From: an uncultured Bacteroidota bacterium
GTDB lineage: Bacteria > Bacteroidota > Bacteroidia > Bacteroidales > VadinHA17
DNA length: 64,000 bases
Assembly (NCBI GenBank): GCA_903824785.1
Contig: CAIJYD010000111.1
Coordinates: forward strand, 71,059-135,058
Reading direction: 5' to 3'
A model generated the notes under the pieces. The model saw only the letters and a program-made list of their open reading frames with translations. It did no database searches and had not been told where the DNA came from. Below, one piece after another: positions 16,659 to 45,857 of this stretch. The stretch's first letter is position 1. Each line of letters opens with the position of its first letter. The position numbers and the translations under genes were made by a program.

Positions 16659-16754
16659 ATATAGGATATTTCGCGTAATAGCGATCAGGTTATTACCGTA
16701 AGAGACACCGGTTGAAAATCTTCAACCCGGCCTGTTTCTGCTATTTATATTATC

Positions 16755-20520: not shown

Positions 20521-21846
20521 TTACATTCCTTTTCGCATCTCATGAACGGCTTCGATAATATTATCTGCCATATATTCAAGTTGCTGTTCAGTTAAAGGAT
20601 ACAACGGAAAATGGGTAAACTTATGAAGAAATGCTTCTTCTGCATTTGGGCAGCTTTTTTGCATAGCAGCCGTGTCGTGACCCAGTTGTTTCAGGTATGA
20701 GAAGCGGTAAAGGGGAGCAAAATGAGGGATATTTATTATACCCCGGTCATTCATTTTAGTCTTGAAATCCTGGATATCACCATTGAGTCTTTTATGATCG
20801 AGTTGAAAAAGATATAAATGATAGGCGCTTTTAATATCTTTTGTGTCAAGCGGACATGGTAGAATCTCTTCTATACCGGCAAATCTGCTGTTCAGGTATT
20901 CAGCATTTAATTTCCTGGTCTTGATTATTTCCGGCAATCTCTTAAACTGGTTAAGGAGAACAACAGCCTGTATTTCGGTTGAAGAATGGTTTCCTGCCAT
21001 TGAAAAATGGTCTCCCTTTCCTTTAAGAGCAACTACGTCATAGAGCCATTTGTCGATAGGATTGGCAATATCAAATCCTCCAAAACGGGCTTTAGGAAAA
21101 TCATTCCCGTAATCTGAATTGGTAACTACAATTCCTCCTTCACCGCATGAGGTAATGTTCTTTACTTCGTGAAAACTGAAGGAACCGAAATCGCCAATTG
21201 TTCCTACTGCCTTCCCTTTGTAGAAGCTACCGAATGCATGAGCACCGTCCTCAATGACAGCAATATCATTCTCTTTTGCTATTTTCATTATAGCCTCCAT
21301 GTCGCAAGGATATCCGCCGATATGAACCGGCATAATGGCTTTAGTCCGTTTTGTAATCTTTTTTGCAATATCTTCCGGACTGATATTCAGAGTTTTCGGA
21401 TCAACATCTGCCAGAACAACTTTTGCTCCGATCTGCAAAGGATAAGTAATGGTTGAGAGGAAAGTAATTGCAGGGGCTATAACCTCATCTCCCGGCGTCA
21501 GGCCAGCAAACTTAAGTCCCATCTCAAATCCGGCAGTTGCATTGGTGACAAAACTGGCATGCTTTACATCGAGTAATTCCCTGGTGGCATCTTCCAGTTT
21601 TTTCACATTTGATCCTAACGACAGTTTTGTTGCGAAATGTCCTTTTTCAAGAAGTTTTTCAAGCTCCAGAGAAACCTGTGATAATTGCTTTTTGTAAGCG
21701 GCATCATCTTTCCCTTCAGGGATAAGTAATTCAATTATTGAAGTTATATCTTCAATATTCATGGTTTCGCCGACTGCAGCCCATGGCACTTTAGCTTCGC
21801 CTGTATCATAACGAAAATCTGATTTGGCTTTTTCTGGTTTCTTCAT
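20521..21846 (-). CDS. DegT/DnrJ/EryC1/StrS family aminotransferase (no signal peptide, cytoplasmic)
   Basis: Type-I fold PLP enzyme. AIMPVHIGGYPCDM, VIEDGAHAFGS and FSFHEVKNITSCGEGG (putative PLP lysine) are present. Confidence 0.85.
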   Translation of the reverse strand: MKKPEKAKSDFRYDTGEAKVPWAAVGETMNIEDITSIIELLIPEGKDDAAYKKQLSQVSLELEKLLEKGHFATKLSLGSNVKKLEDATRELLDVKHASFVTNATAGFEMGLKFAGLTPGDEVIAPAITFLSTITYPLQIGAKVVLADVDPKTLNISPEDIAKKITKRTKAIMPVHIGGYPCDMEAIMKIAKENDIAVIEDGAHAFGSFYKGKAVGTIGDFGSFSFHEVKNITSCGEGGIVVTNSDYGNDFPKARFGGFDIANPIDKWLYDVVALKGKGDHFSMAGNHSSTEIQAVVLLNQFKRLPEIIKTRKLNAEYLNSRFAGIEEILPCPLDTKDIKSAYHLYLFQLDHKRLNGDIQDFKTKMNDRGIINIPHFAPLYRFSYLKQLGHDTAAMQKSCPNAEEAFLHKFTHFPLYPLTEQQLEYMADNIIEAVHEMRKGM

Positions 21847-21933: not shown

Positions 21934-23994
21934 TTATTTTGAATTTAAAAAGATATCTTCAAATTTTAAGGTGGAATTGTTAATATTATTAAGGTCGTTA
22001 AAATCAACGATTTTTGTATAAATATTTCTCCAGAGAAGGTACTCCGAATCAAATTTTCCGGTCATTGTTCCCAATCGGTATGGCCTGTTCTCCGAGAGCC
22101 AGGCCTTACTGTATTCACCCTTTATTTCAGTACACCAATCCATCATATCAACTGTAAGTCCGTGAGTTGTATAGTTAATATCATAAAACCGGTGGTTATC
22201 TTTTTTCCCATCTGCATTCAGGCTATAGATCCAGTTCCAGCGGTCGACTATGGTTTTTGCCCAGATAAACCTGGTTGCGGCATAATGTGACATCCGGCTA
22301 TTGACGAGCATAGACTCAATAAATGCCGTATCTCTGGTCTGATGGCTGCGAGCTTCAATAAAATATTCAAGGGCAGCTTCAGCCGCTATCCGTGAACTTT
22401 TAAAGTCGGCAAAGTGGTCATTGGTAATTTTCAGGGCTTCCGGAGAAAAAGGATCTTTAAACATTTTATTCAGAGTATGTCTACCGAGGCATTTTGCAAG
22501 AAAAGATTCTGACTCCTCCAGTTTTTTAAAACCATTGGCCATCTGTCCGGAAATTTCCGGGTACATTATCTTACAGTAATTTCCGACAAAACTATTTCTG
22601 TCGAGAGGTTCCTTTTGCCAGGCGCCAACCGATCCGTAAGCCATAAACAACCATGTGTTTCTTAACAACGGCTGTACAGCATCGGTCCATACAGAGGTTA
22701 TATACCCGATAGCCTTTTCGTTCTGACAGGTTTTCAGACAGATGTCAATGTTATCAAATGTATAATTGGCTGCAGTATAAACATTTCCCCAATTATCTAC
22801 CGCCGATTGTACGAAAAATGGCAATTTCTCTTTTTTTATTGGTTTTAACCATCTGGTAATGGATGCGGGGTTATCTGAATAATCCCATATCACAGGGATC
22901 AGCTCCTTTGGAAACTCTGAAATAATATCGGGGTAGTTATTTGAAATATCAGTCCATACCATAACTGTTTTTCCATAACCCTGGAGTGCTTTTGTAACGA
23001 AGTTGAGTTGTTTCAGATAAAGTTCTTTTGGTTTAATTGAAGGGTCCTCTATTTTAACTCTTTCTGTCTCCCAGGTTTCATCGAAGCCAACATGGATAAA
23101 AGGGCTGGGGAATATTTCAACGTACTGTTTAATCCAGTCGTTAAGAAACATTTGTACCCCGGGGTTTGCAGGATTCAGATCATGGCCATATTTCCCGATA
23201 CCCAGACCCGCGTATTTCTCCATCCTGATCATTTCATGAAGATGTCCATAAAAATTTACAAACGGAATAACGTCCATATGTCTTTCACGGCCATAGGCAA
23301 CAATCCGTTTAATCTCTTCCTGCGAATAACAGGCATTATAGTTGATGAGCGAATATCCTTTCATTTCAATGCTCACTTCATTATAGAAATAGTATTGATT
23401 CATTTTCCATTGTGCCAGAAAATCAATCTGATTTTTTATCTCTTTTTCAGTAAGCAATCCTCCGTGAGAGAAGTCCATCATAACGCCACGGTAAGCGAGG
23501 GATGGAAAATCTTCTATATTAACCTGAGGAATATAACTGCCTGTGCCTTCCTTAACAATCAGCTGTTGTAATGTTTGCAGAGCGTAAAACAGAGCTGCGT
23601 CGGATTTTGCATTTACTATAACTTTGCCGGCAGTAACAGTAATACGGTAACTTTCGCGTGACAGATTGCCTGGTTTTTCATTTAAAACCGGCAGGGCCGG
23701 ACCGGCCTGTTCAGAGTTCAGAACTATTACGCGGGAATCAGGAACGCCAGTACTAGTGGTCAGAAGAGACAATCCTGTACGTTGCTTCACAAAATCGATG
23801 AACTGAGCAATTGAGGTTTGTTCTCTTGATAATAATTCAGGAGAGACTACCACTTTAGCCCCTGAAATCTGGAATTTATCTTTGCCCCATTCTATGTTCT
23901 GAGGAACAGGCAACAGATTAACAACCTGTGCATTAAGGTTTTTCCCGATGAAGAGAATAACCAGAACGGATAAGATTATGATTTGTCTCTTCAT
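21934..23994 (-). CDS. Glycoside hydrolase family 20 beta-N-acetylhexosaminidase, secreted
   Basis: Signal peptide. YRGVMMDFSHGG and the catalytic-pair context IHVGFDETWE (H-x-G-x-D-E). Confidence 0.8.
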   Translation of the reverse strand: MKRQIIILSVLVILFIGKNLNAQVVNLLPVPQNIEWGKDKFQISGAKVVVSPELLSREQTSIAQFIDFVKQRTGLSLLTTSTGVPDSRVIVLNSEQAGPALPVLNEKPGNLSRESYRITVTAGKVIVNAKSDAALFYALQTLQQLIVKEGTGSYIPQVNIEDFPSLAYRGVMMDFSHGGLLTEKEIKNQIDFLAQWKMNQYYFYNEVSIEMKGYSLINYNACYSQEEIKRIVAYGRERHMDVIPFVNFYGHLHEMIRMEKYAGLGIGKYGHDLNPANPGVQMFLNDWIKQYVEIFPSPFIHVGFDETWETERVKIEDPSIKPKELYLKQLNFVTKALQGYGKTVMVWTDISNNYPDIISEFPKELIPVIWDYSDNPASITRWLKPIKKEKLPFFVQSAVDNWGNVYTAANYTFDNIDICLKTCQNEKAIGYITSVWTDAVQPLLRNTWLFMAYGSVGAWQKEPLDRNSFVGNYCKIMYPEISGQMANGFKKLEESESFLAKCLGRHTLNKMFKDPFSPEALKITNDHFADFKSSRIAAEAALEYFIEARSHQTRDTAFIESMLVNSRMSHYAATRFIWAKTIVDRWNWIYSLNADGKKDNHRFYDINYTTHGLTVDMMDWCTEIKGEYSKAWLSENRPYRLGTMTGKFDSEYLLWRNIYTKIVDFNDLNNINNSTLKFEDIFLNSK

Positions 23995-24032: not shown

Positions 24033-25364
24033 TTAATTTTTCTTAAATGTCCATCTTGTAACCCGATAACCATAATAAGCGTAATAGACCAGATAGAGGT
24101 AGCAAGGGAAGAGCACCATATAGGCAATACGCGGGTTATAATGATCAGCAAAATATCCGTAAAATATTGGAAGGATTGCGCTTCCGCAAAGCCCCATAAT
24201 AAGTATCGATCCCCCCATTTTAGTAAAGCGGCCGAGTCCGTTCAGTGCCAGAGGCCATAAAGTTGACCACATCAAAGAATTGGAGAGCCCCAACAGGACA
24301 AGGAACCAGATTGAAAGGTCACCGGTAATACCAAGAAATGTTACCTTTCCGTGCACCAGGAAGAATAAGATTGTCGACACAATAGCCGAGGTGGTACAGA
24401 TCCGCAACACATTAAGATGGTTTATGTATTTTGGAATAAGGACAATACCCATAAGAAAACCTGACATGGTTATCGCGAGAATATAAGATGGTAATACTTT
24501 TGCCTCAAGCAATGGCAGACCCAGCGACTGAGCATAACCAATAATGGTGTTAATTCCGATAACCTGAGAACCCACATGGAGGAAGATTGCCACAGCACCA
24601 AGAATCAGATATGGGAAATGAAGAATACTTGTTTTGCCTGAATTAATACTGGCCTCAGCAGAACTTTCATTGTCGGTATTAATTTCAGGCAGAACTGAAT
24701 ACCTGATCAATAATCCAAGTCCGAAAAGAACTACTGCCATACCTGCATAGGGGATGATTACTCTTCTGATCAACTCATCCAGCACAGCATTTCTTGTGGC
24801 GTCATCCATAAGCGGAATCTGCTTAAACAACTCCGTGTCGGATGGTCTGAGTATCGCTGCAGCCAATAATAACGGCGCAATTACCCCTGCTGTTTTATTG
24901 CAGACGCCCATAATACTCATTCTTTGAGCTGCTCTTGCCTTTGAACCAATCTTAGTAATATAGGTATTGCCGGCAGGTTGAAGTATAGCCAGTCCTGTAC
25001 CGATAGAAAAAAGTCCCAGCAAGAATAATCCATAGGTTCTGGTTAAGGCTGCCGGAATAAATATCAGAGCACCAAGAGCCATAATCCAGAGACCTATCAT
25101 TATTCCCTTTTTGAATCCGACCTTCCCGAGCAGGTGTGCTGCCGGTATGGCCATAACCAGATAAGCAATGTAAAAAGCAAAAGCCACCAGTAAAGACTGG
25201 ATATTATTTAATTCGCATGCTATTTTAAAATAAGGTATTAAGATCGCATTTATCCACGTAGTAAAGCCAAAAATAAAGAACATCAATGCTACTATTATCA
25301 TTGATTTCACAATGTTTCGCGTTGATAAAGAACTGACATCTACTATTTCGATTTCCTTTTGCAT
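24033..25364 (-). CDS. Sugar MFS transporter (FucP/GluP/NagP-like)
   Basis: 443 aa, 12 TM, with an N-terminal region typical of the glucose/galactose/GlcNAc MFS subfamily. Confidence 0.8.
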   Translation of the reverse strand: MQKEIEIVDVSSLSTRNIVKSMIIVALMFFIFGFTTWINAILIPYFKIACELNNIQSLLVAFAFYIAYLVMAIPAAHLLGKVGFKKGIMIGLWIMALGALIFIPAALTRTYGLFLLGLFSIGTGLAILQPAGNTYITKIGSKARAAQRMSIMGVCNKTAGVIAPLLLAAAILRPSDTELFKQIPLMDDATRNAVLDELIRRVIIPYAGMAVVLFGLGLLIRYSVLPEINTDNESSAEASINSGKTSILHFPYLILGAVAIFLHVGSQVIGINTIIGYAQSLGLPLLEAKVLPSYILAITMSGFLMGIVLIPKYINHLNVLRICTTSAIVSTILFFLVHGKVTFLGITGDLSIWFLVLLGLSNSLMWSTLWPLALNGLGRFTKMGGSILIMGLCGSAILPIFYGYFADHYNPRIAYMVLFPCYLYLVYYAYYGYRVTRWTFKKN

Positions 25365-25408: not shown

Positions 25409-26752
25409 TTATATTTTGGGTTCCCAGCCAGGCTGATATTCACGTCGCCATAGTTTCTCGGAAACAGGATCATTTTTAATATGGCCTGTTGAAGCATCCA
25501 GATTAAGAGTATTACCTGAACGAAGGGCAATATTTCCTAACTGAACGAGAAGTGTGCTTTTATGACCACTCAGAATATCTGCATTAAGTTTTGCACCATT
25601 ACTTATCCCATCCAGGAAGTTACGGATATGAACACTATCGAGACCACCTGAAGGGTTGCTCAGATTACTGGCGTCTATTGACGTTTTACTGTTAACTTCC
25701 TTAATAAGTTTACCTTTCAGGTCAAAGACAGAATAGGAATCACCTCCATCCATTTTCATGGAACCTTCATCCCCGCTGAATATAACGCCGACGCCACTGC
25801 CTTCTATTGGCCTGCCATTACAACTGAGACCTTCCCATGTCATGCTGGTATTATTATTAAATTCCATTGTAATAACCTGTGTATCTGGTGTTTCCCAATC
25901 ATCAGTATAACGATACCGACCACCTGAAGAACAGACACGTACAGGATAATCGACACCTAAGCCCCAACGAGCCAGGTCAACAAAGTGGGTACCGTTATTC
26001 AGGGATTCACCTGTTCCCCAATTCCAGAACCAGTGCCAGTTATAATGTATAAGATTGTCTTTAAACGGTTTACGCGGAGCCGGGCCCTGCCATAGGTCAT
26101 AATTAAGCCATGAAGGCACAGCAACTTCCTTACCGCGTCCTATTGAGAGGCGGTTATTAGTGTACCATGTTTTCGCAAAATAGGGTCTGCCAATAATTCC
26201 GGCCTTTAGCTCGGTAATACCTGCAATAATATTAGGGAATGAGCGACGCTGATTTCCCATCTGAATAACATTCTTATATTTTGCAGCAGCAGCTACGAGC
26301 ATCTCTCCTTCGTTTGGATTATGGCTGCAGGGTTTTTCGAGATAGACATGCTTTCCGGCGGCTGAAGCAAGAATTGCAGCCGGAGCATGCCAATGATCAG
26401 GAGCCGCAATTACTATGGCATCCAGGTCCTTTTTTTCAAGAGCTTTTCTGAAATCTGGTATTGCTACCGGCCGGCTGTTCTGCACTTTTTCGATACTGTC
26501 TGAACATGCGGCTTCAGCATTAGAGTCAACATCGCAGACATAAATTATTTTTGCTTTTTCTTGTTTTGCAAAAGTATTTGCCAAAGCTTTTCCACGTGAA
26601 TTAACACCCATCATAGCAATATTAATCCTGTCATTAGCACCAAAAATGCCATTATAACTTTTTGCACTAAAACCAGGCAAAATGCCACCAAAGGAGACAG
26701 CTGCTGCTCCTGTCATGGCTTTTTTAATAAACGCCCTGCGATTATTTTCCAT
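25409..26752 (-). CDS. Tat-signal Gfo/Idh/MocA family oxidoreductase
   Basis: Twin-arginine motif NRRAFIK. INIAMMGVNSRG Rossmann motif. YLEKPCSHN (EKP motif). Confidence 0.85.
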   Translation of the reverse strand: MENNRRAFIKKAMTGAAAVSFGGILPGFSAKSYNGIFGANDRINIAMMGVNSRGKALANTFAKQEKAKIIYVCDVDSNAEAACSDSIEKVQNSRPVAIPDFRKALEKKDLDAIVIAAPDHWHAPAAILASAAGKHVYLEKPCSHNPNEGEMLVAAAAKYKNVIQMGNQRRSFPNIIAGITELKAGIIGRPYFAKTWYTNNRLSIGRGKEVAVPSWLNYDLWQGPAPRKPFKDNLIHYNWHWFWNWGTGESLNNGTHFVDLARWGLGVDYPVRVCSSGGRYRYTDDWETPDTQVITMEFNNNTSMTWEGLSCNGRPIEGSGVGVIFSGDEGSMKMDGGDSYSVFDLKGKLIKEVNSKTSIDASNLSNPSGGLDSVHIRNFLDGISNGAKLNADILSGHKSTLLVQLGNIALRSGNTLNLDASTGHIKNDPVSEKLWRREYQPGWEPKI

Positions 26753-26804: not shown

Positions 26805-27845
26805 TTAAAAACTTATTTTTTTTGCAATCCGGGTAGCTTTTTCCACTACCTTTTCTATTTCTACCGGGGCACCACCAGCAAGCTTGCTATCATCTGCTGC
26901 CTGCATAAAGGCAAAAATATCCAGTGTCTCTTCCCTGCTTACAGGAACCACTCCAGTATTAAAGAACTCTAAAATTTTATTGAGCAGAGGTACATATCCG
27001 TTAAAAGCCCCAAGAGCGAGGATCCCTTTCTCTCCGAATACATTTCCGCCATAACCGCTTTTTCCTGCACGGATTCCGCGGTATGAGCCAATACGGTTAT
27101 CCTGCCAGGTTCCAACAGCCAAATCTGTATCAGGTGTAGTTACCCTTGTAACGCTTTTACATCCGGTTCCCATGATAGTAAATAACATCTCGACGCCATG
27201 AATTCCGTACCAGAAAAAATCAGGGTGTGTTTTTTCGAGGCTGCATGGAGAAAAAGTATCAGCACCTAACACCTTACCTATCTGACCCTCAGAAATCTCT
27301 TTAGCTCCTGTAATATACCGAAGGGAAGAAGAGGAGAAGACAGGTACCTTGAAATGAGCTGAGGCATTGAATATTGCAATTGCATCGGATAATGAAGCAG
27401 CAACAGGTTTATCAATGAACATACGTTTGCCGGCTTTTAATACCGGAATGGCCTGCTCCAGATGAAGCCTTCCATCGTTGGTTTCCAATAAAACAAAATC
27501 AACTTTTGTAAGAAGTTCATCAATTGAATTGACAATCTCAACACCAAGTTTTTTAACATCCTCAATATAACCGGGGATCCTCTCAACACTTGATTTGATA
27601 TCATTACTACCCTTTGGATAGGCTGCTACAACTTTAAATCCACCATAATCTGCACCAGGCTCAGGGGCATTAAGAGCTTTTGTAAAAGCTATGCTGTGTG
27701 ATGTATCAAGTCCGATAATACCTATTTTCCCTCCACTCGCAAAGCTTCTGCCGTATAAGGAAGCTGCATTACCTGCCAGGCCAAGACCAATACCACCAAT
27801 TGCAGCTGTTTTTACAAAATCACGGCGATTGAATTCTTTTTTCAT
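26805..27845 (-). CDS. Tat-signal Gfo/Idh/MocA family oxidoreductase
   Basis: Twin-arginine motif NRRDFVK. GKIGIIGLDTSH Rossmann-like motif. MFIDKPVAAS (DKP variant of the EKP motif). Confidence 0.75.
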   Translation of the reverse strand: MKKEFNRRDFVKTAAIGGIGLGLAGNAASLYGRSFASGGKIGIIGLDTSHSIAFTKALNAPEPGADYGGFKVVAAYPKGSNDIKSSVERIPGYIEDVKKLGVEIVNSIDELLTKVDFVLLETNDGRLHLEQAIPVLKAGKRMFIDKPVAASLSDAIAIFNASAHFKVPVFSSSSLRYITGAKEISEGQIGKVLGADTFSPCSLEKTHPDFFWYGIHGVEMLFTIMGTGCKSVTRVTTPDTDLAVGTWQDNRIGSYRGIRAGKSGYGGNVFGEKGILALGAFNGYVPLLNKILEFFNTGVVPVSREETLDIFAFMQAADDSKLAGGAPVEIEKVVEKATRIAKKISF

Positions 27846-27907: not shown

Positions 27908-29293
27908 TTACTTATTTAATTTCTTAACCTGCACCGGAATACTGATAAGGTCGGTACGTGTTTTTCCATTTTCGGTTATTCTGGCAAGAGTATATACGGT
28001 GCCATCATCCCCTATTGCAATTGAGTTGACATAATAGGGACGCTGACCATCGGGATAATAAACAGCACCATGATCGAGATATTTTCCTGTTGGAATATCA
28101 TAAGTTATCAAATGAAGATCTTCCATACCCTTTGCTTCGCCTTTTGCTGTTGAGGTGGCACCCATAACCCGTTTTCCGTCAACATATACGGGGCCTCCTG
28201 TGAGGTAATTGATTGTACGCCCGTCGGGGCCAAGTTTGAAACCGAGATACCCGTAGCTGAACTGGTCACCCATACCTGTAAGTTTTGATGGCACTGAAGT
28301 AAGCCTTTCAAGAACTTCAATCCGGGGTGCAACCGGATCGAACCGGAACAGATAGCCTGAGTTGCCATGAACACCATAGATCTTTTTCTCTGGTCCATAC
28401 CAGAAAGCCTGACGCCAGTTATAAGCCATACTTCCTGATGTGAAAATATCATAAGTCCCAAAGTAGTCCTTCTTCATATCCTCACCTTCAATAGTCTCCA
28501 CAACATCCGATCCAAGTTTCAGGCACTTGATCTGCCCCTCAGCATTGGTAAGATAAACGGAACCATCTTCAGAATTAATGGCAATAGAACGGCATACTAC
28601 GCGAAAGTCTTTATCCCAGCCATCTTCACCTTTGCCGGTGAAGGGACCAAGATCTTTCATCTCCTTTGTTGCAATATCAAACCTGAAGAGTATACCTGTT
28701 GGCCATGAGAGCCCATAGATAAGACCCCGCTGAGTATCCATGTTCATTGTTATGATACCTTCCTTATTCGGACCGATTCCCAGATCTTCAAATTTCTTTG
28801 TTTTCATGTCGTAGGAAATCAAATGGCCGCCACGGTAAGCTTTGTAGTCACCGGTAGGAAGGCCTGTTTTTTCCATACCTTTAATGATGCTGTAGTAACC
28901 AAGGTGTGTAGCGAAATAGAGTTTGCCGTTTGATTCGACAAAGTTCACATGGCTTTTCCCCTGTGCAACCACTTTCATACCTTTCTCACCGCATATCTCG
29001 GAAAGATCAGCTAAAAATTCAGTTTTTTTGGTTGCCGGGTCGAAAACGAACATCTGACCGGCAACATCCATCAACTGAGAGCAGAGAACATAATAGATCT
29101 TACCATCGCTTGCAGAAGAAATGCCATTATAAGTGTCGTGGGCATGTTCAAAGCCTGAATTATATACCGTGGCAATTAAACTGTCTCCGGGAGTGGATTC
29201 CTCAGGAGCTTCAGCCACCGGTTGAGCCTGTTTGCAACCTGAAATAATCAGTATTGCAAACAGGAGTGTCAACAAAAGTCGGTTTATTCTCAT
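27908..29293 (-). CDS. Lipoprotein, predicted beta-propeller, function unknown
   Basis: Lipobox LIISGC. Recurrent beta-rich repeats of about 45 aa (..G.IY...S.....F.FD..TKK...LG..). Confidence 0.6.
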   Translation of the reverse strand: MRINRLLLTLLFAILIISGCKQAQPVAEAPEESTPGDSLIATVYNSGFEHAHDTYNGISSASDGKIYYVLCSQLMDVAGQMFVFDPATKKTEFLADLSEICGEKGMKVVAQGKSHVNFVESNGKLYFATHLGYYSIIKGMEKTGLPTGDYKAYRGGHLISYDMKTKKFEDLGIGPNKEGIITMNMDTQRGLIYGLSWPTGILFRFDIATKEMKDLGPFTGKGEDGWDKDFRVVCRSIAINSEDGSVYLTNAEGQIKCLKLGSDVVETIEGEDMKKDYFGTYDIFTSGSMAYNWRQAFWYGPEKKIYGVHGNSGYLFRFDPVAPRIEVLERLTSVPSKLTGMGDQFSYGYLGFKLGPDGRTINYLTGGPVYVDGKRVMGATSTAKGEAKGMEDLHLITYDIPTGKYLDHGAVYYPDGQRPYYVNSIAIGDDGTVYTLARITENGKTRTDLISIPVQVKKLNK

Positions 29294-29333: not shown

Positions 29334-30704
29334 TTATATTGAATTCAGTTTATCTCTGTTTTCGTAAACTTTTAAAACAGCATTAATCACATCATCCATG
29401 TCAGCGAGTGTTCCGAGCAGAGGACCTGAAGCCCATAGCATTACCATATCCTGACAAACCTGGTCACATTTTGGAAGAAGCAGTTCATCCTGGAATTTTT
29501 TCAGCCTTGCAGCACCAAACATTGTTTTATACTCAGGTAAAGTCTGAATATGGCTGGTCCAAGGCTCTTTATGCAATCCGTTTGAAATATAACCGCTTAA
29601 GCTGATACCTTCAGCAGCAACTGCTTTCAGGAATTTATCACGTGGTGCATTATTGAAATGCTCTTTTTTATACGACCATGTATAGAGGTAGAACGATCCT
29701 GCAGTTGTTCCTTCGTACAATTTCTGTGGTACAAGGCCGGGACAGCCTTTAAGTTTCTCAGTCAGGTATTTTGCATTTCTGTTACGAGTATTATGACGCT
29801 CTCTTACTCCTGGCATTTGACCAAGAAGTACTGCACCTTCAAATTCATTCATCCTGTACTTTGAACCGATAGTTTCTGTTTTGCCTCTTTTTGAAGTGCC
29901 ATGATTCTGAACAGTATAGCACTTATCCATTAACTCATCATTATTACTTATGAGTCCACCGCCCTCACCGCAGGAGAGAACTTTGCTTGTCTGGAAGCTA
30001 AAGCAGCCAACATCACCAATGGTTCCAATTGTTTTACCCTGATACTCAGCAAGAAATGCCTGGCAGGCATCTTCAATTACTTTCAGATTATTCTTCTTTG
30101 CAATTGCCATAATACGCTCCATATTACAAGGCTGACCCATAATATGAACAGGCATAATAGCTTTTGTTCTTTTTGTAATTTTCCGTTCCACATCGTCAGG
30201 ATCGAGCTGGAATGAATCGGGATCAAGATCAGCCATTACAGGAAGTGCGCGGCTAACCAGAATTGCCTGTATTGTTCCTGGATCTGTATAGGGAGAAGTG
30301 ATTATCTCGTCACCCGGGCCTATTCCAAGAGCTTCAACTGCAGTATTTAATGCCTGTGTGCCTGATCCAACGCATACACTCGACTTGGTTCCAAGTATTT
30401 TAGCAAATTCTTTCTCAAATGTTGATACGGTACCGGTTGCTGATTGAATCCTGCACCAGATACCACTTCTTGTTGTTTTAACAACTTCTTCAACTACTTT
30501 CTCATCAACATAAGGCCAATCAGGCCAGACTTTTGCAGGAGCAACAGGGGTTCCTCCCAGGATGGCAAGCTTTCCTGAATTATTGTTTATTGATGTAATA
30601 TTCCCAAAAGCCGGAATAGAGCTTGATACAGCAACAGCAGCAGTACCTGCAGATACTGTGGAAATGAATTTCCGTCTGGTAAAATCGTTCTTTTTCATCA
30701 TCAT
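29334..30704 (-). CDS. Tat-signal DegT/DnrJ/EryC1/StrS family aminotransferase (predicted periplasmic)
   Basis: Twin-arginine motif TRRKFIS followed by a hydrophobic h-region and AFG. DegT core AIMPVHIMGQPCNM, VIEDACQAF and FSFQTSKVLSCGEGG. Confidence 0.85.
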   Translation of the reverse strand: MMMKKNDFTRRKFISTVSAGTAAVAVSSSIPAFGNITSINNNSGKLAILGGTPVAPAKVWPDWPYVDEKVVEEVVKTTRSGIWCRIQSATGTVSTFEKEFAKILGTKSSVCVGSGTQALNTAVEALGIGPGDEIITSPYTDPGTIQAILVSRALPVMADLDPDSFQLDPDDVERKITKRTKAIMPVHIMGQPCNMERIMAIAKKNNLKVIEDACQAFLAEYQGKTIGTIGDVGCFSFQTSKVLSCGEGGGLISNNDELMDKCYTVQNHGTSKRGKTETIGSKYRMNEFEGAVLLGQMPGVRERHNTRNRNAKYLTEKLKGCPGLVPQKLYEGTTAGSFYLYTWSYKKEHFNNAPRDKFLKAVAAEGISLSGYISNGLHKEPWTSHIQTLPEYKTMFGAARLKKFQDELLLPKCDQVCQDMVMLWASGPLLGTLADMDDVINAVLKVYENRDKLNSI

Positions 30705-30789: not shown

Positions 30790-31506
30790 CTATTTTGTTT
30801 TATCTTCTATTCCTGACAGGAGGTTTATAAGTATTACACCATTGGCGCCTCTGATTCCATAAACAGAAGCAGCCGGTCCCTTAAGCACCTCAATGGATTT
30901 AACAATCTGAGGTGAAATATTATCAATACTGTTTACCATCACACCATCCACAACAAACAGTGGCTCTGTATTGGCATTCAGAGAAGACGAACCCATAACT
31001 TTTATACTTTTCCCGGATACACCAACCCCGGGAACAGCTCCACGAAGCATATCATAAATATCCTGATATCCGGCAAACCTCTGACTTTGCCCATCGATCT
31101 TGTTTACCCGGGTTGCTGAATCTTTTTTCTTCATGGTACCATATCCGGTACTAATAGTTTCATTATCACTATCGGTAACATTTTCTTCTGGTTTTCCGGA
31201 TTCACCCGGAAGAATAAAATCAATGGTAGTCCTTCCTTCTATCGGTACTTTCACATATCCGGTATAAAAAGAAAAAACCATAATTTCACGGGCTTTCAGG
31301 CTGGCTTTAACTTTATAATACCCTTTTTTATCTGTTACTGAATTCGTCTTTACTTTGTCAATAAAAATAGCGGTATTCTCAACAGGCTTTTGTTTTGCAT
31401 CTGTAACAAAACCTGTTATTATTATATTCTTCTTTACCTTTTGCCCCGATGAGATCTGGCAAACACAAATAAAAGAAAGCAATAAAAAGAAACCGGTGCT
31501 CTTCAT
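30790..31506 (-). CDS. CarboxypepD_reg-like plus TonB-plug domain protein lacking a beta-barrel
   Basis: Signal peptide. ITGFVTDAKQKPVENTAIFI...GYYKV resembles a CarboxypepD_reg domain. PLFVVDGVMV...IKSIEVLKGPAASVYGIRGANGVILI is the plug core. The ORF ends at 238 aa. Confidence 0.7.
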   Translation of the reverse strand: MKSTGFFLLLSFICVCQISSGQKVKKNIIITGFVTDAKQKPVENTAIFIDKVKTNSVTDKKGYYKVKASLKAREIMVFSFYTGYVKVPIEGRTTIDFILPGESGKPEENVTDSDNETISTGYGTMKKKDSATRVNKIDGQSQRFAGYQDIYDMLRGAVPGVGVSGKSIKVMGSSSLNANTEPLFVVDGVMVNSIDNISPQIVKSIEVLKGPAASVYGIRGANGVILINLLSGIEDKTK

Positions 31507-31563: not shown

Positions 31564-32829
31564 TTATTTTTCTGAACGTTTTTTAACATGAGGTTTATCT
31601 CCATATTCAATAATAACCGCATCGCCGTCATTTAATATTGAGATCCGTGCCGCTTCAACAACAAGTTCATTAATAAAGCTATTGGCAGGAGTGGCAATAA
31701 TTCCTTTTTTGTCAACTTCCCTGATCATCTCCTGTCGCCTTTTCAAGGATTCTCCCGCTGTCATACCATCTACTTCATTTTCAATACCAATTGCCATGGT
31801 TATGCTTGCCGAAACGGAGTCTGGACCATAACCTACAGGCTTATAACCCTCCCCCTCCCACGGAACAATCCGGTAAAAATCAGGACTTACAAAATTGAAT
31901 TGCGATCCGCCGCAGCCTATTCCTTCAAGGTACGAATGTTCCACACCACGGTTCTGATCATTATGTTTTATCATACCTGTCTTGCCATCTCCTTCAAAAA
32001 ACATCTGCAGATTCTGTTCATTACTTCCTGCTGCTGCATCGGGATATCCCAAACCGTCAATTACTGAGAGGATTGCATTGTTTTCAAAACGGACTCTTCC
32101 GTTAGCCCACATATATCCTTCATTCCCGTTGGGAAATTTCCCTTTTATTCCTGTAACTGATACCTCCACCGGTCTTAATCCGGTTATAAAATACACAAGA
32201 TCAACATAATGGCAACCTATATATACAAACGGATCTGTTTTATCGCAGGTGAACCAGTTCTGAAAGTTTGATGACCTGTAGTAATATGGTTCAATCAGTT
32301 TTGCTTCGCCCATTACAAACTCACCGAACTGTTTTAATTCATAGCCTCTTTTAGCCATCAATGACCTGCGGTCGAAACGTTTATGATATTCAACACCTAC
32401 AAAAAGTCCTTTTTCGTATGCAATTTTTTCTATCTCAATAGCCTGCTCATATTTAAGTACCAGCGGTTTTACGCAGAGGATATGCTGATTATGTTTCAGA
32501 GCCTCCATAACCACAGGATAGTGAAGCTGATCGGGCATTGCAACAACGACAATCTGCCTTGGTTTCATCTTTGCGATGACTTCACGGTAGAGGTCAGGAA
32601 ATTTATTCTCCTCCGGTTCACCAAAAGGGGGAAAAGGTTCAAAACTCTGCCCCGGGAAAGCCTCCCTGATCTCTTTGCTGTTTTTCAATGCATTGAGGGG
32701 AGGTGAATCGAGAGCACAGACTTTGATATCGTTAATATAACCTGTACGCTGGAGATGATAAGCAACAGGCAATAACAGATCGAAGGTGATCATTCCTCCG
32801 CCAATGATAACTACATCCAAAGAATTCAT
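31564..32829 (-). CDS. Gfo/Idh/MocA family oxidoreductase (no signal peptide, cytoplasmic)
   Basis: VVIIGGGMI dinucleotide motif. HILCVKPL (EKP-position variant). 22 nt downstream of the class-III aminotransferase. Confidence 0.7.
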   Translation of the reverse strand: MNSLDVVIIGGGMITFDLLLPVAYHLQRTGYINDIKVCALDSPPLNALKNSKEIREAFPGQSFEPFPPFGEPEENKFPDLYREVIAKMKPRQIVVVAMPDQLHYPVVMEALKHNQHILCVKPLVLKYEQAIEIEKIAYEKGLFVGVEYHKRFDRRSLMAKRGYELKQFGEFVMGEAKLIEPYYYRSSNFQNWFTCDKTDPFVYIGCHYVDLVYFITGLRPVEVSVTGIKGKFPNGNEGYMWANGRVRFENNAILSVIDGLGYPDAAAGSNEQNLQMFFEGDGKTGMIKHNDQNRGVEHSYLEGIGCGGSQFNFVSPDFYRIVPWEGEGYKPVGYGPDSVSASITMAIGIENEVDGMTAGESLKRRQEMIREVDKKGIIATPANSFINELVVEAARISILNDGDAVIIEYGDKPHVKKRSEK

Positions 32830-32851
32830 CTATTTACGCTTTTAAGTGATA

Positions 32852-34222
32852 CTATTTTCCTAAAATTTCATCGCATGCTTCTTCGAACACCTTAATGCCT
32901 TCTCTTAATGCCTCTTCAGTAATCATTAAAGGAGGAGCAATTTTCAGACACTCACCTGCAATACCAACCGGAGCAAACATTAACAATCCCTTGTGGAAAC
33001 ATTTCTCATTAATTTTCAGAGCAGTATCTGAATCAGGGGTTTTGGTCCCTTTCTTTACAACCTGAATACCGGCTACAAGTCCAAGTCCATGCATGCATCC
33101 TAACACATCGGGGTATTTATTTCTGATCCTGTTTAATTCAGGAATAAGTATTTCGCCTGATATCCGGGCCTTTTCAACAAGATTTTCTTTCAAGATGATT
33201 TTCAGACTTTCAACAGCAGCAACAACAGGTAAAGGGCTTCCTGAATGTGTCGATGTCATTGACCCCGGACCATAAAGGCTCATTATATCTTTTCTGCCAA
33301 TGACAGCGGAGACAGGCAATGATGAAGAGATCCCTTTTCCGCAGGCTATCAGGTCAGGTTTTATCCCATAATGCTCATATGTGAACATTTTTCCTGTTCG
33401 CCCAAACCCAGACTGTACTTCATCATAAATACTTACAATATCATATTCAAGACAAAAGGCTTCTAGTCTTTTTGCATATTCAACAGGTAAGAAATCCGGA
33501 CCCACACCCTGGTATGATTCTGTCATTATGCCGGCAATCTCCCCGGGTTCAACGCCTTTTTCCTTCAGAGTTTCAAGAAAAAGATCGAAAGAGGTGTTTT
33601 CATTTTTATACCCGTCGGGAAAAGGAACCTGGATAAATGTCTTTCCTTCATCTACTATCCAGGTCTTTAATTTTGCCATTCCTCCTGCGAGCTGTGCGCC
33701 AAGGGTTCTTCCATGAAAGGCATTAATAAATGAAACAAAATATTTCTTCTGAGGTCCGTGTTTTTCAAAAGCGTATGTTCGGGCAAGCTTAATACAGTTT
33801 TCAGTTGCTTCGCTGCCGGTGCTAAGGAGAAAGGCAAGATAATTTGCAGGATCGGGTGATATGCTCTGAAGCATCCTGGTAAGCTCAGCACGTTTTTCAT
33901 GAACAAAAACATAAGTAGCAAGGAGTTTACTGTCGAGCAGATTACGAAGAGCTTTGATTATCTCTTTGCGACCATGGCCGGCATTGGTTATTAAGACTCC
34001 CGATGACCAGTCGATCCACTTGTTTCCCCATTTGTCGTAAACCTGAAATCCCTCAGCCCTGTCCCATATAATAGGAGGCTGGCCCATCATTGAGACCGGT
34101 TCTGATTCAGACAGTGTTTGAAATATACTTAAGGATTCAGGGACTGGTAATTTTGTTTTGATCCTTCTATATTTGGTTTTTACTTTGGGGACATCAACTG
34201 GAGTAAGATCGTATTTTGCCAT
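32852..34222 (-). CDS. Class-III (omega/acetylornithine-type) PLP aminotransferase
   Basis: LLSTGSEATENCIKLAR, DEVQSGFGRTGKMF and ACGKGISSSLP (Schiff-base lysine context). Confidence 0.85.
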   Translation of the reverse strand: MAKYDLTPVDVPKVKTKYRRIKTKLPVPESLSIFQTLSESEPVSMMGQPPIIWDRAEGFQVYDKWGNKWIDWSSGVLITNAGHGRKEIIKALRNLLDSKLLATYVFVHEKRAELTRMLQSISPDPANYLAFLLSTGSEATENCIKLARTYAFEKHGPQKKYFVSFINAFHGRTLGAQLAGGMAKLKTWIVDEGKTFIQVPFPDGYKNENTSFDLFLETLKEKGVEPGEIAGIMTESYQGVGPDFLPVEYAKRLEAFCLEYDIVSIYDEVQSGFGRTGKMFTYEHYGIKPDLIACGKGISSSLPVSAVIGRKDIMSLYGPGSMTSTHSGSPLPVVAAVESLKIILKENLVEKARISGEILIPELNRIRNKYPDVLGCMHGLGLVAGIQVVKKGTKTPDSDTALKINEKCFHKGLLMFAPVGIAGECLKIAPPLMITEEALREGIKVFEEACDEILGK

Positions 34223-35450: not shown

Positions 35451-36851
35451 TTACTTTTTACTGTCCAGAAGTTTTCTCATTGAGCTCATAACAATGTCTT
35501 CAGCTTCTTCTGTAACGGCACTTGCAGGTCCCGCTTCATAGCCACCCTCTTTATATGCTTTTGCAGTGCAGATATAGCCGGTAGCATAATCCCCATAAGC
35601 TGCCATGGCAACAAACAAGTCGGGACGCATTTTCTTTGCAGCAAGCTGATATTCAACAAAAAGTTCGCCCGGCATAAAGAGTATACGGGCACGACCAATG
35701 GCAAGGCAGCCTATATTAATCTTCATCCCTGCCTGTGTGCGTTTGAGCCAGGCCAGTTTAAAAAGGTTATTTGTCAGATAAACAGGATCTTTGATTTTTA
35801 TCTCTTCCTGAATATTTTGAATATACGATGCAGGAGTTAATGCTATTGGATCCGTTTTCCAGCTAACATCAGCGGAAGAAACAGGTTCTTTGGTGGTTGA
35901 TTCCCAGGCTCTTTTCATTCCGTCGGCTAATCTTTCAGCAAGTACTCCTCTTCTTTCCTTTGATCCGTCATTGTATTTGCCGGCAGCCAGGTTGCCTCCT
36001 GCACCGCTAAAATGAACGTGTAATGCCTGAGGAACCGCAAGTTGCCTCATAAAACGTGCAACACCCGGAAAGTCAGGATTTGCTATCCCAAGCCGATAAT
36101 AGCTTTGTGGATGGCAGGCGTAATAACTCAAAACAGCTACCGGCTGGTTGCCATTCCAGAAACTTACCAGAGCAACCATCGGATCTGTCAATCCTTCAGG
36201 CTCGGCCCTCAAAGCAGAATCCCTGCAAGATGAAGATCTGTTTCCTTTCACTAATCCATCGGGACCAAGAATACGCCGGTTTGAAGCTACCTCATAAACC
36301 ACTGCCTGACCAACGCCAATATGTGTTACAGGCTGAGCCGATTCCAGAGAGTTCTTTACTGAAATACCCAGACGTTTTATAAGATCATATTGAAAAGAAC
36401 TTTCATAACTAAGCGGACTGAGCCCTGCTTCCTTTAAAATTTTCTCAGCACCAAAGTCGCTTATAGGAGCGTCGTGCTGGTGAACGGTATGTACAGCAAC
36501 CCTCTCAGGTATTGTTCCTGCTGCCTCAGCAAGGGTTTTTTTAAAAGCATCCTGGCTCTCGTTGGATATGCCAATCCAGTCAACAGAGCAAAGCACAACA
36601 GGCTGGCCGGCTCCGAGTAAAACAATCCCTTTGGCTCTTAGTCCAAGGTCCCACGAGTTTATCATTACATCGTACGCAAGACGACTACCGACCGGCGGTG
36701 TGGCATCAACATCGAAAGTGGAAATACGAAGAGCTGTATTCACTCCCGGCCCGGAGGAATTTCCATCTTCCTTAATAACTGCAAGTGCCGGCAGTGTTAA
36801 TATTAACAGGTACAGGAGAAGTTTTATTTTTAGTTCAGGGAAGCATTTCAT
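35451..36851 (-). CDS. Secreted protein, paralog 1 of a tandem pair (distant neutral-ceramidase-like pattern)
   Basis: Signal peptide. FDVDATPPVGSRLAY...GLRAKGIVLLG..QPVVLCSVDW...VAVHTVHQHDAP parallels the DITPP..G...L.ARA..L......D....ATHTHS.P layout of neutral/alkaline ceramidase N-domains. This is a weak assignment from memory. Confidence 0.6.
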   Translation of the reverse strand: MKCFPELKIKLLLYLLILTLPALAVIKEDGNSSGPGVNTALRISTFDVDATPPVGSRLAYDVMINSWDLGLRAKGIVLLGAGQPVVLCSVDWIGISNESQDAFKKTLAEAAGTIPERVAVHTVHQHDAPISDFGAEKILKEAGLSPLSYESSFQYDLIKRLGISVKNSLESAQPVTHIGVGQAVVYEVASNRRILGPDGLVKGNRSSSCRDSALRAEPEGLTDPMVALVSFWNGNQPVAVLSYYACHPQSYYRLGIANPDFPGVARFMRQLAVPQALHVHFSGAGGNLAAGKYNDGSKERRGVLAERLADGMKRAWESTTKEPVSSADVSWKTDPIALTPASYIQNIQEEIKIKDPVYLTNNLFKLAWLKRTQAGMKINIGCLAIGRARILFMPGELFVEYQLAAKKMRPDLFVAMAAYGDYATGYICTAKAYKEGGYEAGPASAVTEEAEDIVMSSMRKLLDSKK

Positions 36852-36903: not shown

Positions 36904-38310
36904 TCAGTGTTTACCCTTCTGATTACTTTTCAGGAGTTTTGATATTGCTGCCATAATAATGCCTTCAGCTTCATTTGTTACATTAGATACCCCGATTTCG
37001 TAGCCACCCTGGTCATAAGATAACGCAGTTCCGATATAAGCAGGGTCAGAATCGCCATATGCTGCCATGGCCACAAACAGGTCGGGACGCATGGCTTTGG
37101 CTGCAAGCTGATACTCGACGAAAAGTTCCCCCGGCATATTTAAAATACGTGCCCTTCCAAGAGAAAGGCATGAAATATCGAGCTTCTCTCCTTTTTCAGA
37201 ACGTTGCAGCCATGCAATCTTTTTCGCATTTGCACGAAGGAGTGTAGTATCTTTCAGATTTATCTCTGATTTTATTTTTTTTATTGATTCCGGTAAAGGA
37301 AGTAAAACGGGCACAACAGACCATTCTACCTGACTTGCAATTAATGGTTCAATTTTGGTTGATTCCCAGGCTCTCTTCATGCCATCGGCAAGTCGTTCAG
37401 CCAGTATCCCGCGGTTCTCATGAGAACCATCATTATATTTTCCTGCGCCAACGTTTCCTCCTGCACCTGTAAAATGTATATGAAGTGCATCAGGAACAGC
37501 GAGTTGTCGGTAAAAACGGGCAACTCCGGGATAATCAGGATTAGCTACCCCTAAACGGTAATAGCTTTGCGGATGTGTTGCATAATAGCTTAACACTGCA
37601 ACCGGTTTTGAGTTATTCCAGAAGCTGATTACCGACACCATTGGATCGATAACACCTTCAGGTTCTGCGCGGATAAGTGAATCGCGGCAAGTGGTCATTC
37701 GACCTGCCCGTACCTTACCATTATCATCCAGTATCCGCCTGTTTGAAGCGACCTTGAAAACCTGGGCCTCTCCAAAACCAATATGTGTTACGGCCGAACC
37801 ATTTTTCAGACAGTTTTTTACTGAAACTTCAAGCCGTTTAATCACTTCCCTCTGAAAAGTACCCTCGTAAGTCTCCGGTTTTAACCCGGCATTATTAAGG
37901 ATCCGTTCAGCGGCAAAATTACTTCGAGGAGCATCGTGCTGGTGCAAAGTCTGAACGGCAACCCTTGAGGGAATTGTTCCGGCACCATTTGCTACCGCAG
38001 TACGGAAAGCATTATAACTCTCACCATCAATGCCTAGCCAGTCAATAGCCACCAGAACAACAGGTTGTCCTGCTCCTGACAATACAATGCCTTTTGCCCT
38101 TAAACCAAGATCCCACGAATTAACATTCGGATCGTATGATAAAAAACTTCCAACAGGAGGGGTAACATCAATATCAAATGTGGAAACTGTCAGCCCCGGT
38201 GTTTTTGGTTCCTGTTCAATCGCGCTCACATTTGCATATCCCTGAATAAACAACATAGATATCAGAATAATGCTGAGCAATGTTCTGAATAATTTTTTAT
38301 CTGAGCACAT
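36904..38310 (-). CDS. Secreted protein, paralog 2 of the tandem pair
   Basis: Collinear with 35451..36851 at roughly 60% identity by eye. Shared blocks include NSWDLGLRAKGIVL, HQHDAP, VASNRRIL, AEPEG, PVAVLSYYA.HPQSYYRLG.ANPD.PGVARF, LAERLADGMKRAWEST and MPGELFVEYQLAAK.MRPDLFVAMAAYGD. Confidence 0.6.
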   Translation of the reverse strand: MCSDKKLFRTLLSIILISMLFIQGYANVSAIEQEPKTPGLTVSTFDIDVTPPVGSFLSYDPNVNSWDLGLRAKGIVLSGAGQPVVLVAIDWLGIDGESYNAFRTAVANGAGTIPSRVAVQTLHQHDAPRSNFAAERILNNAGLKPETYEGTFQREVIKRLEVSVKNCLKNGSAVTHIGFGEAQVFKVASNRRILDDNGKVRAGRMTTCRDSLIRAEPEGVIDPMVSVISFWNNSKPVAVLSYYATHPQSYYRLGVANPDYPGVARFYRQLAVPDALHIHFTGAGGNVGAGKYNDGSHENRGILAERLADGMKRAWESTKIEPLIASQVEWSVVPVLLPLPESIKKIKSEINLKDTTLLRANAKKIAWLQRSEKGEKLDISCLSLGRARILNMPGELFVEYQLAAKAMRPDLFVAMAAYGDSDPAYIGTALSYDQGGYEIGVSNVTNEAEGIIMAAISKLLKSNQKGKH

Positions 38311-40344: not shown

Positions 40345-40400
40345 TTTTAATTAATTTTTAGATTTGAAAATAAATAATCTATCAATTTCAATAAACAGAG

Positions 40401-45841: not shown

Positions 45842-45857
45842 TTTATTAAGGTATGTA

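Follow-up and report, generated by a model that had tools for sequence, protein, structure and literature searches.

Periplasmic transaminase A (PtaA) of Pseudomonas is a pyridoxal 5'-phosphate (PLP) transaminase that leaves the cytoplasm by twin-arginine translocation (Tat) and deaminates its substrate in the periplasm, turning a glutamate residue into 2-oxoglutarate. The route by which PtaA regenerates its PLP is unresolved. Here we describe a gene for a predicted Tat-exported PLP enzyme in a 64,000-nucleotide window from an uncultured Bacteroidota bacterium of the VadinHA17 lineage (assembly GCA_903824785.1, contig CAIJYD010000111.1, positions 71,059 to 135,058; all coordinates below are those of the window). 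The gene lies at 29334..30704 on the minus strand, and its product, which we call Tat-DegT, combines a Tat-type signal with a DegT-family aminotransferase domain. PtaA and the PLP enzyme PvdN are exported by Tat folded with their cofactor and are active in the periplasm, as is predicted for Tat-DegT. They differ from it in acting on a siderophore side chain, in belonging to Pseudomonas and in their gene context. Because PtaA and PvdN precede it, the principle of a Tat-exported periplasmic PLP transaminase is not new. What is new, judging from the sequences, is a large, cross-phylum and uncharacterised subfamily of Tat-signal DegT enzymes with recurrent gene partners. We found no description of such an enzyme or of its gene module in the full-text literature searched, where subscription journals are thinly covered. 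Papers on Bacteroides thetaiotaomicron fitness genetics and on GapMind were considered as descriptions of it and proved unrelated to the enzyme.

Other described systems resemble the locus more than the enzyme alone. WbpB/WbpE, GnnA/GnnB and NtdC/NtdA each couple a Gfo/Idh/MocA dehydrogenase with a DegT enzyme, as in the Tat-DegT locus, and each pair interconverts C3-OH, C3-keto and C3-NH2 on a sugar. Those pairs are cytoplasmic and biosynthetic and work on UDP-sugars or glucose-6-phosphate, whereas both partners in the Tat-DegT locus carry twin arginines (RR), and their context suggests the reverse, catabolic direction on nucleotide-free sugars. Bacteroides BT2157-BT2160, together with a Tat-exported glycoside 3-dehydrogenase, offers a further parallel, in that a relative of BT_2158 and of the structures 8tdf/8tdh is encoded two genes downstream of Tat-DegT. 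This kinship suggests that sugars in the periplasm of Bacteroidota undergo cofactor-dependent reactions other than hydrolysis. The BT2157-BT2160 pathway uses a sugar-phosphate-isomerase-like lyase and has no known aminotransferase; domain scans detected no gene for such a lyase in the Tat-DegT locus. Glucose-fructose oxidoreductase of Zymomonas is reportedly also exported by Tat, with bound NADP. Against this background we think it somewhat probable that Tat-DegT is a periplasmic, nucleotide-free amino-sugar/keto-sugar transaminase, carrying out a step in a conserved catabolic module that is associated with SusC/SusD.

The predicted protein has 456 amino acids (open reading frame (ORF) list, Pfam match and AlphaFold2 (AF2) model) and begins MMMKKNDFTRRKFISTVSAGTAAVAVSSSIPAFG. 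Pfam DegT_DnrJ_EryC1 (PF01041) matches residues 67-385 (29550..30506) with E = 4.4e-89 and 299.6 bits, against a cut-off of 19.8. The PLP Schiff-base lysine is K241 (codon 29982..29984), inside FSFQTSKVLSCGEGG (residues 235-249). It is invariant in two alignments, of 25 and 17 family members, as are D212, S236, G115 and Q215, and T116 is nearly so. The PLP roles of the residues other than K241, with Asp directed to the pyridine nitrogen and Ser and Gly-Thr to the phosphate, we take to be those known for the family. The AF2 model has a pLDDT of 88, and Foldseek aligns it with Fic25, BtrR, RbmB, perosamine synthase and ArnB at template-modelling (TM) scores, normalised to the target, of 0.85-0.91. 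Judged by hidden Markov model match, catalytic residues and modelled fold, Tat-DegT is a member of the DegT/DnrJ/EryC1/StrS family of fold-type I PLP enzymes, and the passenger behind the signal reads as an intact PLP enzyme with its site residues complete. The ORF, the Pfam match and K241 thus agree with an earlier sequence-only reading, which had described a Tat motif and h-region in front of a complete DegT core with the PLP lysine; that reading had also asked whether the lysine is conserved in alignment, as it is in both of ours.

The predicted Tat signal peptide covers residues 1-34 (30603..30704), as seen in the sequence, in low AF2 confidence and in the starts of homologs. A polar n-region is followed by the motif TRRKFIS, an uncharged h-region of about 20 residues and a polar linker, with a possible A-F-G cleavage site. 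The motif, residues 9-15 (30660..30680, with R10 and R11 at 30672..30677), fits the Tat consensus S/T-R-R-x-F-L-K, and it is conserved in homologs. The h-region (residues 15-34) is mildly hydrophobic, averaging 1.06 on the Kyte-Doolittle scale, and is free of charged residues. In the AF2 model pLDDT falls below 50 at residues 1-8 and 17-41, and the model becomes confident at about residue 45. A downstream methionine that would remove the RR region had been named as one finding that would refute the signal. Within the first 160 codons, however, in-frame ATG, GTG or TTG occurs only at codons 1, 2, 3 and 157, and a start at codon 157 would cost a third of the PLP domain. A downstream start is thereby ruled out, and the signal cannot be removed by re-annotation. 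Both arginines, R10 and R11, are present in every one of 17 diverse Tat-bearing homologs whose identity to the query is 31-73%, and conservation of F13 is at least 90%. Across these homologs the h-region drifts in sequence and stays uncharged and signal-like. Because R10, R11 and F13 are kept while the h-region varies, the RR motif is beyond chance. We regard the Tat-type signal as real and as conserved across phyla, with the sequence features of a Tat substrate. Tat substrates are cofactor-bearing or oligomeric proteins that fold before export, and a PLP enzyme with an intact site suits this description.

Database searches place Tat-DegT in a coherent group. The best 120 database proteins listed are 71-100% identical to it and about 454 amino acids long, and all 11 of the full-length close homologs inspected keep [ST]RR[KQ]F. 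A search of 1.84 billion representatives clustered at 50% identity returned about 20 clusters with an N-terminal extension and an RR pair, 31-61% identical to Tat-DegT, and the pair is invariant across them. The next relatives are signal-less proteins of about 400-420 amino acids, at most 37% identical over the mature domain, which start at query residue 44-46. When the mature domain alone was clustered, 17 of the 18 Tat-bearing representatives fell into one group of 20, whose other three members are N-terminally truncated sequences. Since the Tat-bearing members cluster on the mature domain alone, the signal marks a coherent subfamily and not scattered acquisitions.

We then assembled 81 related loci: 80 from a scan of one genome per GTDB species, in which at least that many exist, plus an extra locus, L001. 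An RR-type N-terminus, called where the first 80 residues of the longest ORF contain RR and then 13 or more uncharged residues, is present in 75 of the 81. These 75 loci come from at least four phyla (Bacteroidota, Planctomycetota, Acidobacteriota, Verrucomicrobiota and a few others), and the Bacteroidota carriers include Prolixibacteraceae, Rikenellaceae, Sphingobacteriales, Chitinophagaceae, Cytophagales and Saprospiraceae. Candidate carriers in culture are Niabella pedocola JCM 31011, Chitinophaga sp. SYP-B3965, Dyadobacter bucti QTA69, Dyadobacter sp. CY343, Membranihabitans maritimus C281, Proteiniphilum sp. X52 and Petrimonas sulfuriphila DSM 16547. Many loci are from metagenome-assembled genomes (MAGs), so taxonomic assignments may include binning errors, a caveat that covers the Planctomycetota copies with 63-64% identity to the window protein. 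Those copies, L005 and L008 from Pirellulales / Planctomycetota MAGs, are as close to it as most Bacteroidota homologs are, which suggests either transfer between phyla or a binning error. Four loci (L001, L015, L019 and L054) hold two to four DegT genes, mostly RR-bearing and in tandem or close together, suggesting diversified substrate or position specificity within one locus.

The substrate class was approached through relatives. Scores of Tat-DegT against the NCBIfam equivalogs for NDP-sugar aminotransferases are all less than half of the cut-off (PRK11706 178/375, LegC 176/420, PseC 166/423.5, ArnB 154/631, DesI 140.5/650). Relatives carry automatic Joint Genome Institute (JGI) names such as 'perosamine synthetase' and 'dTDP-4-amino-4,6-dideoxygalactose transaminase'. 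With scores so far under the cut-offs these names are not justified, and the current database names of Tat-DegT proteins are probably wrong. Gene context agrees: Pfam and NCBIfam scans of the locus's 20 genes found neither NDP-sugar synthesis genes (nucleotidyltransferase, 4,6-dehydratase) nor glycosyltransferases. By score and by context, Tat-DegT falls outside every named NDP-sugar aminotransferase equivalog tested.

Sequence matches in the PDB divide by where they begin. Fic25 (8gyh) aligns from query residue 44, RbmB (5w70) over 45-447 and BtrR (2c7t, 5w71) from 50-56, whereas for perosamine synthase, ArnB, WbpE and WecE the alignment starts only at residue 88-105; AHBA (3-amino-5-hydroxybenzoate) synthase, KdnA and NtdA are also among the matches. 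The top matches by fold are Fic25 (TM 0.85-0.86, again normalised to the target), a metagenomic sugar transaminase, BtrR, AHBA synthase and RbmB. Fic25 aminates a carrier-bound keto-polyol. BtrR and RbmB are L-glutamine:2-deoxy-scyllo-inosose aminotransferases, which according to their PDB titles aminate free inososes. These three (2c7t, 5w70, 5w71 and 8gyh-j) share the fold of Tat-DegT at target-normalised TM 0.85-0.87 and 27-31% identity, and like it have a GGxP...WP segment near the mature N-terminus that the NDP-sugar enzymes do not align. Because Fic25, BtrR and RbmB are relatives over the full mature domain and use nucleotide-free substrates, the kinship of Tat-DegT leans towards such substrates, without proving it. 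The sequence-only reading had been puzzled by an NDP-sugar enzyme in a periplasm where no NDP-sugars are expected; relatives aligning from the mature N-terminus largely dissolve this puzzle, although they do not fix the substrate class. The likeness also has its bounds. BtrR, RbmB and Fic25 are cytoplasmic, signal-less enzymes of antibiotic biosynthesis in Firmicutes and Actinobacteria, whereas Tat-DegT has a Tat signal and a catabolic SusC/SusD locus. Domain scans found no aminocyclitol pathway genes (inosose synthase, aminoglycoside genes) in that locus. At 27-30% identity and outside any aminocyclitol context, Tat-DegT, despite its full-length similarity, is not an inosose aminotransferase of the BtrR, RbmB or StsC type, although it presumably works as they do.

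The same locus encodes a second, signal-less DegT protein of 441 amino acids, presumably cytoplasmic (20521..21846, minus strand; Pfam 1.6e-83). As first read, it has no signal: there is no RR motif, and its N-terminus is much less hydrophobic than that of Tat-DegT. The 14-mer KITKRTKAIMPVHI, quoted earlier as identical in both proteins, was found as given. Its codons differ by 7 synonymous changes in 42 nucleotides, which points to conservation of the motif; recent gene conversion as its source was rejected on the same count. An identity of about 50% over the core, estimated by eye, holds for the central PLP-binding core of 119 residues (about 53%) but not for the proteins as a whole, which are 34% identical over 306 amino acids (BLASTP, E = 2e-51). 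The paralog sits on a different branch from Tat-DegT, and a counterpart of it was detected in only one related locus (L036, 36% identity). The idea that the same chemistry is duplicated on both sides of the membrane therefore finds no support.

We surveyed the neighbours of Tat-DegT genes by comparing the ORFs in the available flanks of the 81 loci with the window proteins and clustering them among themselves, so that the counts depend on how long the contigs are and on the thresholds set for BLAST against the proteins of the window. Among the 75 Tat-positive loci, the commonest neighbour is a ceramidase-like amidase (34 loci), followed by a Gfo/Idh/MocA-type enzyme (31, of which 27 are RR-bearing), a beta-propeller lipoprotein, usually just downstream (19), SusC/SusD (18), a second DegT (13, nine RR-bearing) and a major facilitator superfamily (MFS) transporter (10). 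At least one of the amidase, the Gfo/Idh/MocA enzyme and the lipoprotein is present in 52 of the 75. Genes for Tat-DegT are associated with those for exported keto-sugar oxidoreductases, for N-acyl amidases, for a sugar importer and for glycan uptake at the outer membrane. Homologs of the 346-amino-acid Gfo/Idh/MocA enzyme of the window adjoin Tat-DegT in about 12 loci, and NagB-like and NagA-like genes occur in eight and six loci, respectively. Gene order like that of the window is seen in several loci from Cytophagales, Chitinophagaceae, Sphingobacteriales and Rikenellaceae; in Dyadobacter (L062) it runs SusC, SusD, Tat-signal Gfo/Idh/MocA, Tat-DegT, amidase, lipoprotein, Gfo/Idh/MocA and MFS, with NagA and NagB further on. 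Tat-signal Amidohydro_2 proteins are encoded in about seven loci. In L009, L013, L016, L017, L018, L035 and L040 the Tat-signal Amidohydro_2 gene overlaps a signal-less Amidohydro_2 gene by a few bases (18920-19843 and 19833-20618 in L016), an arrangement reminiscent of a Tat 'hitchhiker' pair, in which two proteins leave the cytoplasm as one complex.

In the window, Tat-DegT belongs to a run of minus-strand genes of about 30 kb with short gaps between them. The run opens with an extracytoplasmic function (ECF) sigma factor (45858..46445) and a FecR-type anti-sigma factor (43887..44975), the likely regulators of the locus, which together span 43887..46445. The domain scan then identifies a SusC-like TonB-dependent transporter (40401..43742) and a SusD-like protein (38632..40344; together 38632..43742). 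Two tandem secreted paralogs, 61% identical, come next: A, of 468 amino acids (36904..38310), and B, of 466 (35451..36851). Their family profile matches neutral ceramidases, over the N-terminal catalytic domain only (2zws 8.5e-13, 4wgk 4.5e-10). Searches with the single 466-amino-acid sequence gave nothing in the PDB and E = 0.2 in Pfam, and we treat the two as candidate N-acyl amidases. A Kelch propeller follows, for which the reading as a sialic-acid mutarotase was dropped as unsupported, there being no NCBIfam match. A signal-less class-III aminotransferase (32852..34222) and a signal-less Gfo/Idh/MocA oxidoreductase (31564..32829), both from the domain scan, make up a cytoplasmic arm (31564..34222). 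Between them and Tat-DegT lies a gene for a 238-amino-acid protein (30790..31506) with a signal peptide, a CarboxypepD_reg domain and a TonB-receptor Plug and without a beta-barrel, either a stand-alone plug or the remnant of a receptor. It is identical in L002, the one other contig with this locus, and was not seen in the other loci.

Just downstream of Tat-DegT is its syntenic partner, an uncharacterised lipoprotein of 461 amino acids (27908..29293) modelled by AF2 as a beta-propeller. It has 3769 homologs at E <= 1e-5, and the names shown among the 120 listed are all 'hypothetical protein'. Pfam, NCBIfam and PDB sequence searches returned nothing significant, and Foldseek only generic propellers at TM of about 0.5 or less. 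In the 19 loci where it follows Tat-DegT the lipoprotein is 51-72% identical, more conserved than the Tat-DegT that precedes it. Two Tat-signal Gfo/Idh/MocA oxidoreductases follow. One, of 346 amino acids (26805..27845; NRRDFV; Pfam GFO_IDH_MocA, TIGR01409), has a weak PDB match to 1,5-anhydro-D-fructose reductase. The other, of 447 (25409..26752; NRRAFI; Pfam), matches NCBIfam BT_2158_fam at 3e-43, under the cut-off, and in the PDB 8tdf/8tdh at 5e-27 and DgpA at 1e-9; by these matches it is related to glycoside 3-dehydrogenases, with the identity of 8tdf/8tdh not confirmed from the literature. After them come an MFS sugar transporter of the NagP/GluP/FucP type (24033..25364; NCBIfam NagP 2.4e-96, under the cut-off) and a glycoside hydrolase family 20 (GH20) beta-hexosaminidase with a Sec-type signal (21934..23994; domain scan).

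Beyond GH20 and the signal-less DegT paralog, the run continues with an EamA/DMT (drug/metabolite transporter) family protein of the carboxylate/amino acid/amine type (19494..20429; Pfam EamA 4.7e-38, NCBIfam TIGR00950 2.2e-17), a homolog of which, 65% identical, lies near Tat-DegT in L034. An unknown protein of 394 amino acids and a Tat-signal GH109-like NAD-dependent glycosidase/oxidoreductase of 483 amino acids (16755..18206; DRRNFI; Pfam Glyco_hydro_109_C 1.8e-41 and GFO_IDH_MocA) complete the order. RR signals are thus found on four proteins of the locus, Tat-DegT and three Gfo/Idh/MocA-type enzymes, these being NAD(P)-dependent sugar oxidoreductase types. Just 3' of the GH109-like gene, a terminator-like hairpin (16710..16727, minus strand) is the sole intergenic one on the coding strand between 16.5 and 36.4 kb, and a very long transcription unit may terminate there. 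The promoter scan uses a sigma-70 consensus, which is inapplicable to Bacteroidota.

With three oxidoreductases of the locus also RR-bearing, keto-sugar and amino-sugar chemistry in the periplasm is the most economical reading. Tat-DegT would fold and bind PLP in the cytoplasm, probably as a homodimer as is typical of the fold (DegT enzymes are dimeric), and would then be exported by Tat to the periplasm. An N-acylated amino-sugar glycan would be imported via SusC/SusD and trimmed by the GH20 and GH109-type enzymes, and the neutral-ceramidase-like amidases would take off the N-acyl group. Tat-DegT would move the amino group thus released onto a keto acid, producing a keto-sugar that the Tat-exported Gfo/Idh/MocA enzymes, with bound NAD(P), would reduce or otherwise process, most plausibly at C3; the product would be taken up by the NagP-like MFS transporter. 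The oxidoreductases could run ping-pong cycles on their bound NAD(P), as in the Zymomonas enzyme. We infer export, periplasmic activity and a nucleotide-free sugar substrate, and more weakly the deaminating direction, the C3 position, the order of steps and the identity of the amino acceptor. Deamination is favoured because an amide must be opened before its amine can be transaminated, which fits the association with amidases, and C3 is the best guess because the partner dehydrogenase is akin to 3-dehydrogenases.

Several observations weigh against this reading. The export, cleavage and activity of Tat-DegT are predictions from its sequence. NCBIfam TIGR01409, a very short model for which the hmmscan filters drop weak matches, gave no report for Tat-DegT at E <= 0.01, and it does match the neighbouring 346-amino-acid enzyme at 3.4e-4. 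The neighbourhoods are heterogeneous, with 23 of the 75 loci having none of the three commonest neighbours, partly owing to short contigs. GDP-perosamine synthase is nearly as similar by fold as the nucleotide-free enzymes, and relatedness leaves the substrate class unfixed. Moreover, we know of no periplasmic source of keto acid with which Tat-DegT could recycle pyridoxamine 5'-phosphate (PMP) to PLP. Cofactor economy is the weak point of the transaminase reading, which needs either a keto acid in the periplasm or an enzyme that is in fact an ammonia-releasing eliminase.

An exported Tat-DegT acting as a PLP eliminase/deaminase on a de-N-acylated amino sugar would form the external aldimine, lose a proton from the amine-bearing carbon and expel a neighbouring hydroxyl or glycosidic oxygen, giving an enamine/imine and then a keto-sugar and ammonia. 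It would need no amino acceptor, and the co-substrate problem in a periplasm with no known keto-acid pool would therefore be solved. Five loci from Sphingobacteriales and Planctomycetota do have secreted RidA/L-PSP proteins of about 400 amino acids adjoining Tat-DegT (L051:8551-9753, L052:8555-9844, L064:8646-9848, L053:3863-5251 and L054:14332-15579), with three RidA/L-PSP stretches matched in the L054 protein, the one scanned, and RidA proteins hydrolyse enamine/imine products of PLP enzymes. Dehydrases also exist within the DegT fold (3bb8/3bcx, 2po3 and 2r0t are among the PDB matches), and AHBA synthase combines transamination with dehydration. We nevertheless consider an eliminase unlikely. 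In the DegT-fold dehydrases ColD and E1 a histidine replaces the Schiff-base lysine and PMP is used, whereas Tat-DegT keeps the lysine and the whole transaminase signature invariant; RidA neighbours occur in only 5 of the 81 loci, and no sequence feature was found that separates Tat-DegT from ordinary transaminases. Transamination could also run the other way, with keto-glycosides from the Tat-exported 3-dehydrogenase-like enzyme aminated by periplasmic glutamate, glutamine or alanine so as to trap reactive keto-sugars, make an amino-sugar for uptake or modify an envelope or extracellular glycan. A donor amino acid is plausibly available outside the cell, a Gfo/Idh/MocA dehydrogenase with a DegT enzyme is the biosynthetic order of the three pairs named above (WbpE and NtdA being among the PDB matches), and the 447-amino-acid enzyme resembles glycoside 3-dehydrogenases. 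Yet the locus is built as a catabolic polysaccharide utilisation locus, with its ECF/anti-sigma pair, SusC/D, GH20, GH109-like enzyme and MFS importer, and NagA- and NagB-like genes are present in addition in related loci. An amidase, which is the most frequent neighbour, is sensible before deamination and not before amination, and the locus yielded neither a glycosyltransferase nor a gene for polysaccharide export. Periplasmic amination thus also strikes us as rather improbable.

The ceramidase-like amidases could instead free some other amino-polyol for Tat-DegT, such as the sphingoid base of a glycosphingolipid whose head group had been removed by GH20, GH109 and sialidase-type enzymes. The match of the 466/468 family to neutral ceramidases fits such a substrate, and GH20 and GH109-like enzymes suit the removal of glycolipid head groups; L001 holds a BNR sialidase-like gene and a Pfam Ceramidase_alk gene, and the substrate of Fic25, the nearest structure, is an acyclic amino-polyol chain. 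The ceramidase similarity is, however, remote and confined to the N-terminal catalytic domain, the transporter is of a sugar type, NagA/NagB-like genes recur and no fatty-acid or lipid-handling genes were seen in the locus, so that we rate this substrate as quite improbable. We give still less credence to a non-working RR region on an ordinary cytoplasmic NDP-sugar aminotransferase, which would be very surprising. The JGI names, the silence of TIGR01409 and the good structural match to GDP-perosamine synthase speak for it. On the other side, no start codon between 3 and 157 could drop the signal, the RR pair does not vary between phyla even though the remainder of roughly the first 40 residues drifts with signal-peptide character, and signal-less relatives miss exactly that N-terminal segment; the equivalog scores and the lack of detected NDP-sugar synthesis or glycosyltransferase genes in the locus also tell against it.

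Beyond the periplasmic sugar transaminase that we favour lies a broader proposal, attractive but on balance doubtful. Tat-DegT might mark a periplasmic pathway, widespread but not yet described, that removes the nitrogen of rare N-acylated amino and diamino sugars of microbial and host glycans, by means of the amidase, PLP-dependent amine removal (transamination or elimination) and keto-reduction by cofactor-loaded Tat-Gfo/Idh/MocA enzymes. An ordinary hexose or N-acetylhexosamine (HexNAc) would then enter by the NagP-like transporter. In this scheme the conserved beta-propeller lipoprotein would be essential and new, perhaps acting as a lyase or isomerase or delivering the substrate. Accounts of how Bacteroidota degrade glycans usually centre on hydrolases and lyases; periplasmic reactions that depend on a cofactor (keto-glycoside pathways, GH109) came to notice only recently. 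To these, an exported subfamily of PLP aminotransferases, present in at least 75 species-level genomes from several phyla, would bring the chemistry of amino groups. Such a subfamily could account for the recycling of rare amino sugars derived from O-antigens, capsules, S-layers, fungal walls and host glycans; to our knowledge, little is known of the catabolism of these sugars. Tat-DegT also sharpens the question raised by PtaA, of how PLP is regenerated in a compartment with no known keto-acid pool.

Elsewhere in the window, the plus strand carries at 57063..58439 a gene for a beta-eliminating lyase of the tryptophanase / tyrosine phenol-lyase type (Pfam 6.8e-84), with a MatE transporter gene after it; this lyase has no connection with Tat-DegT.

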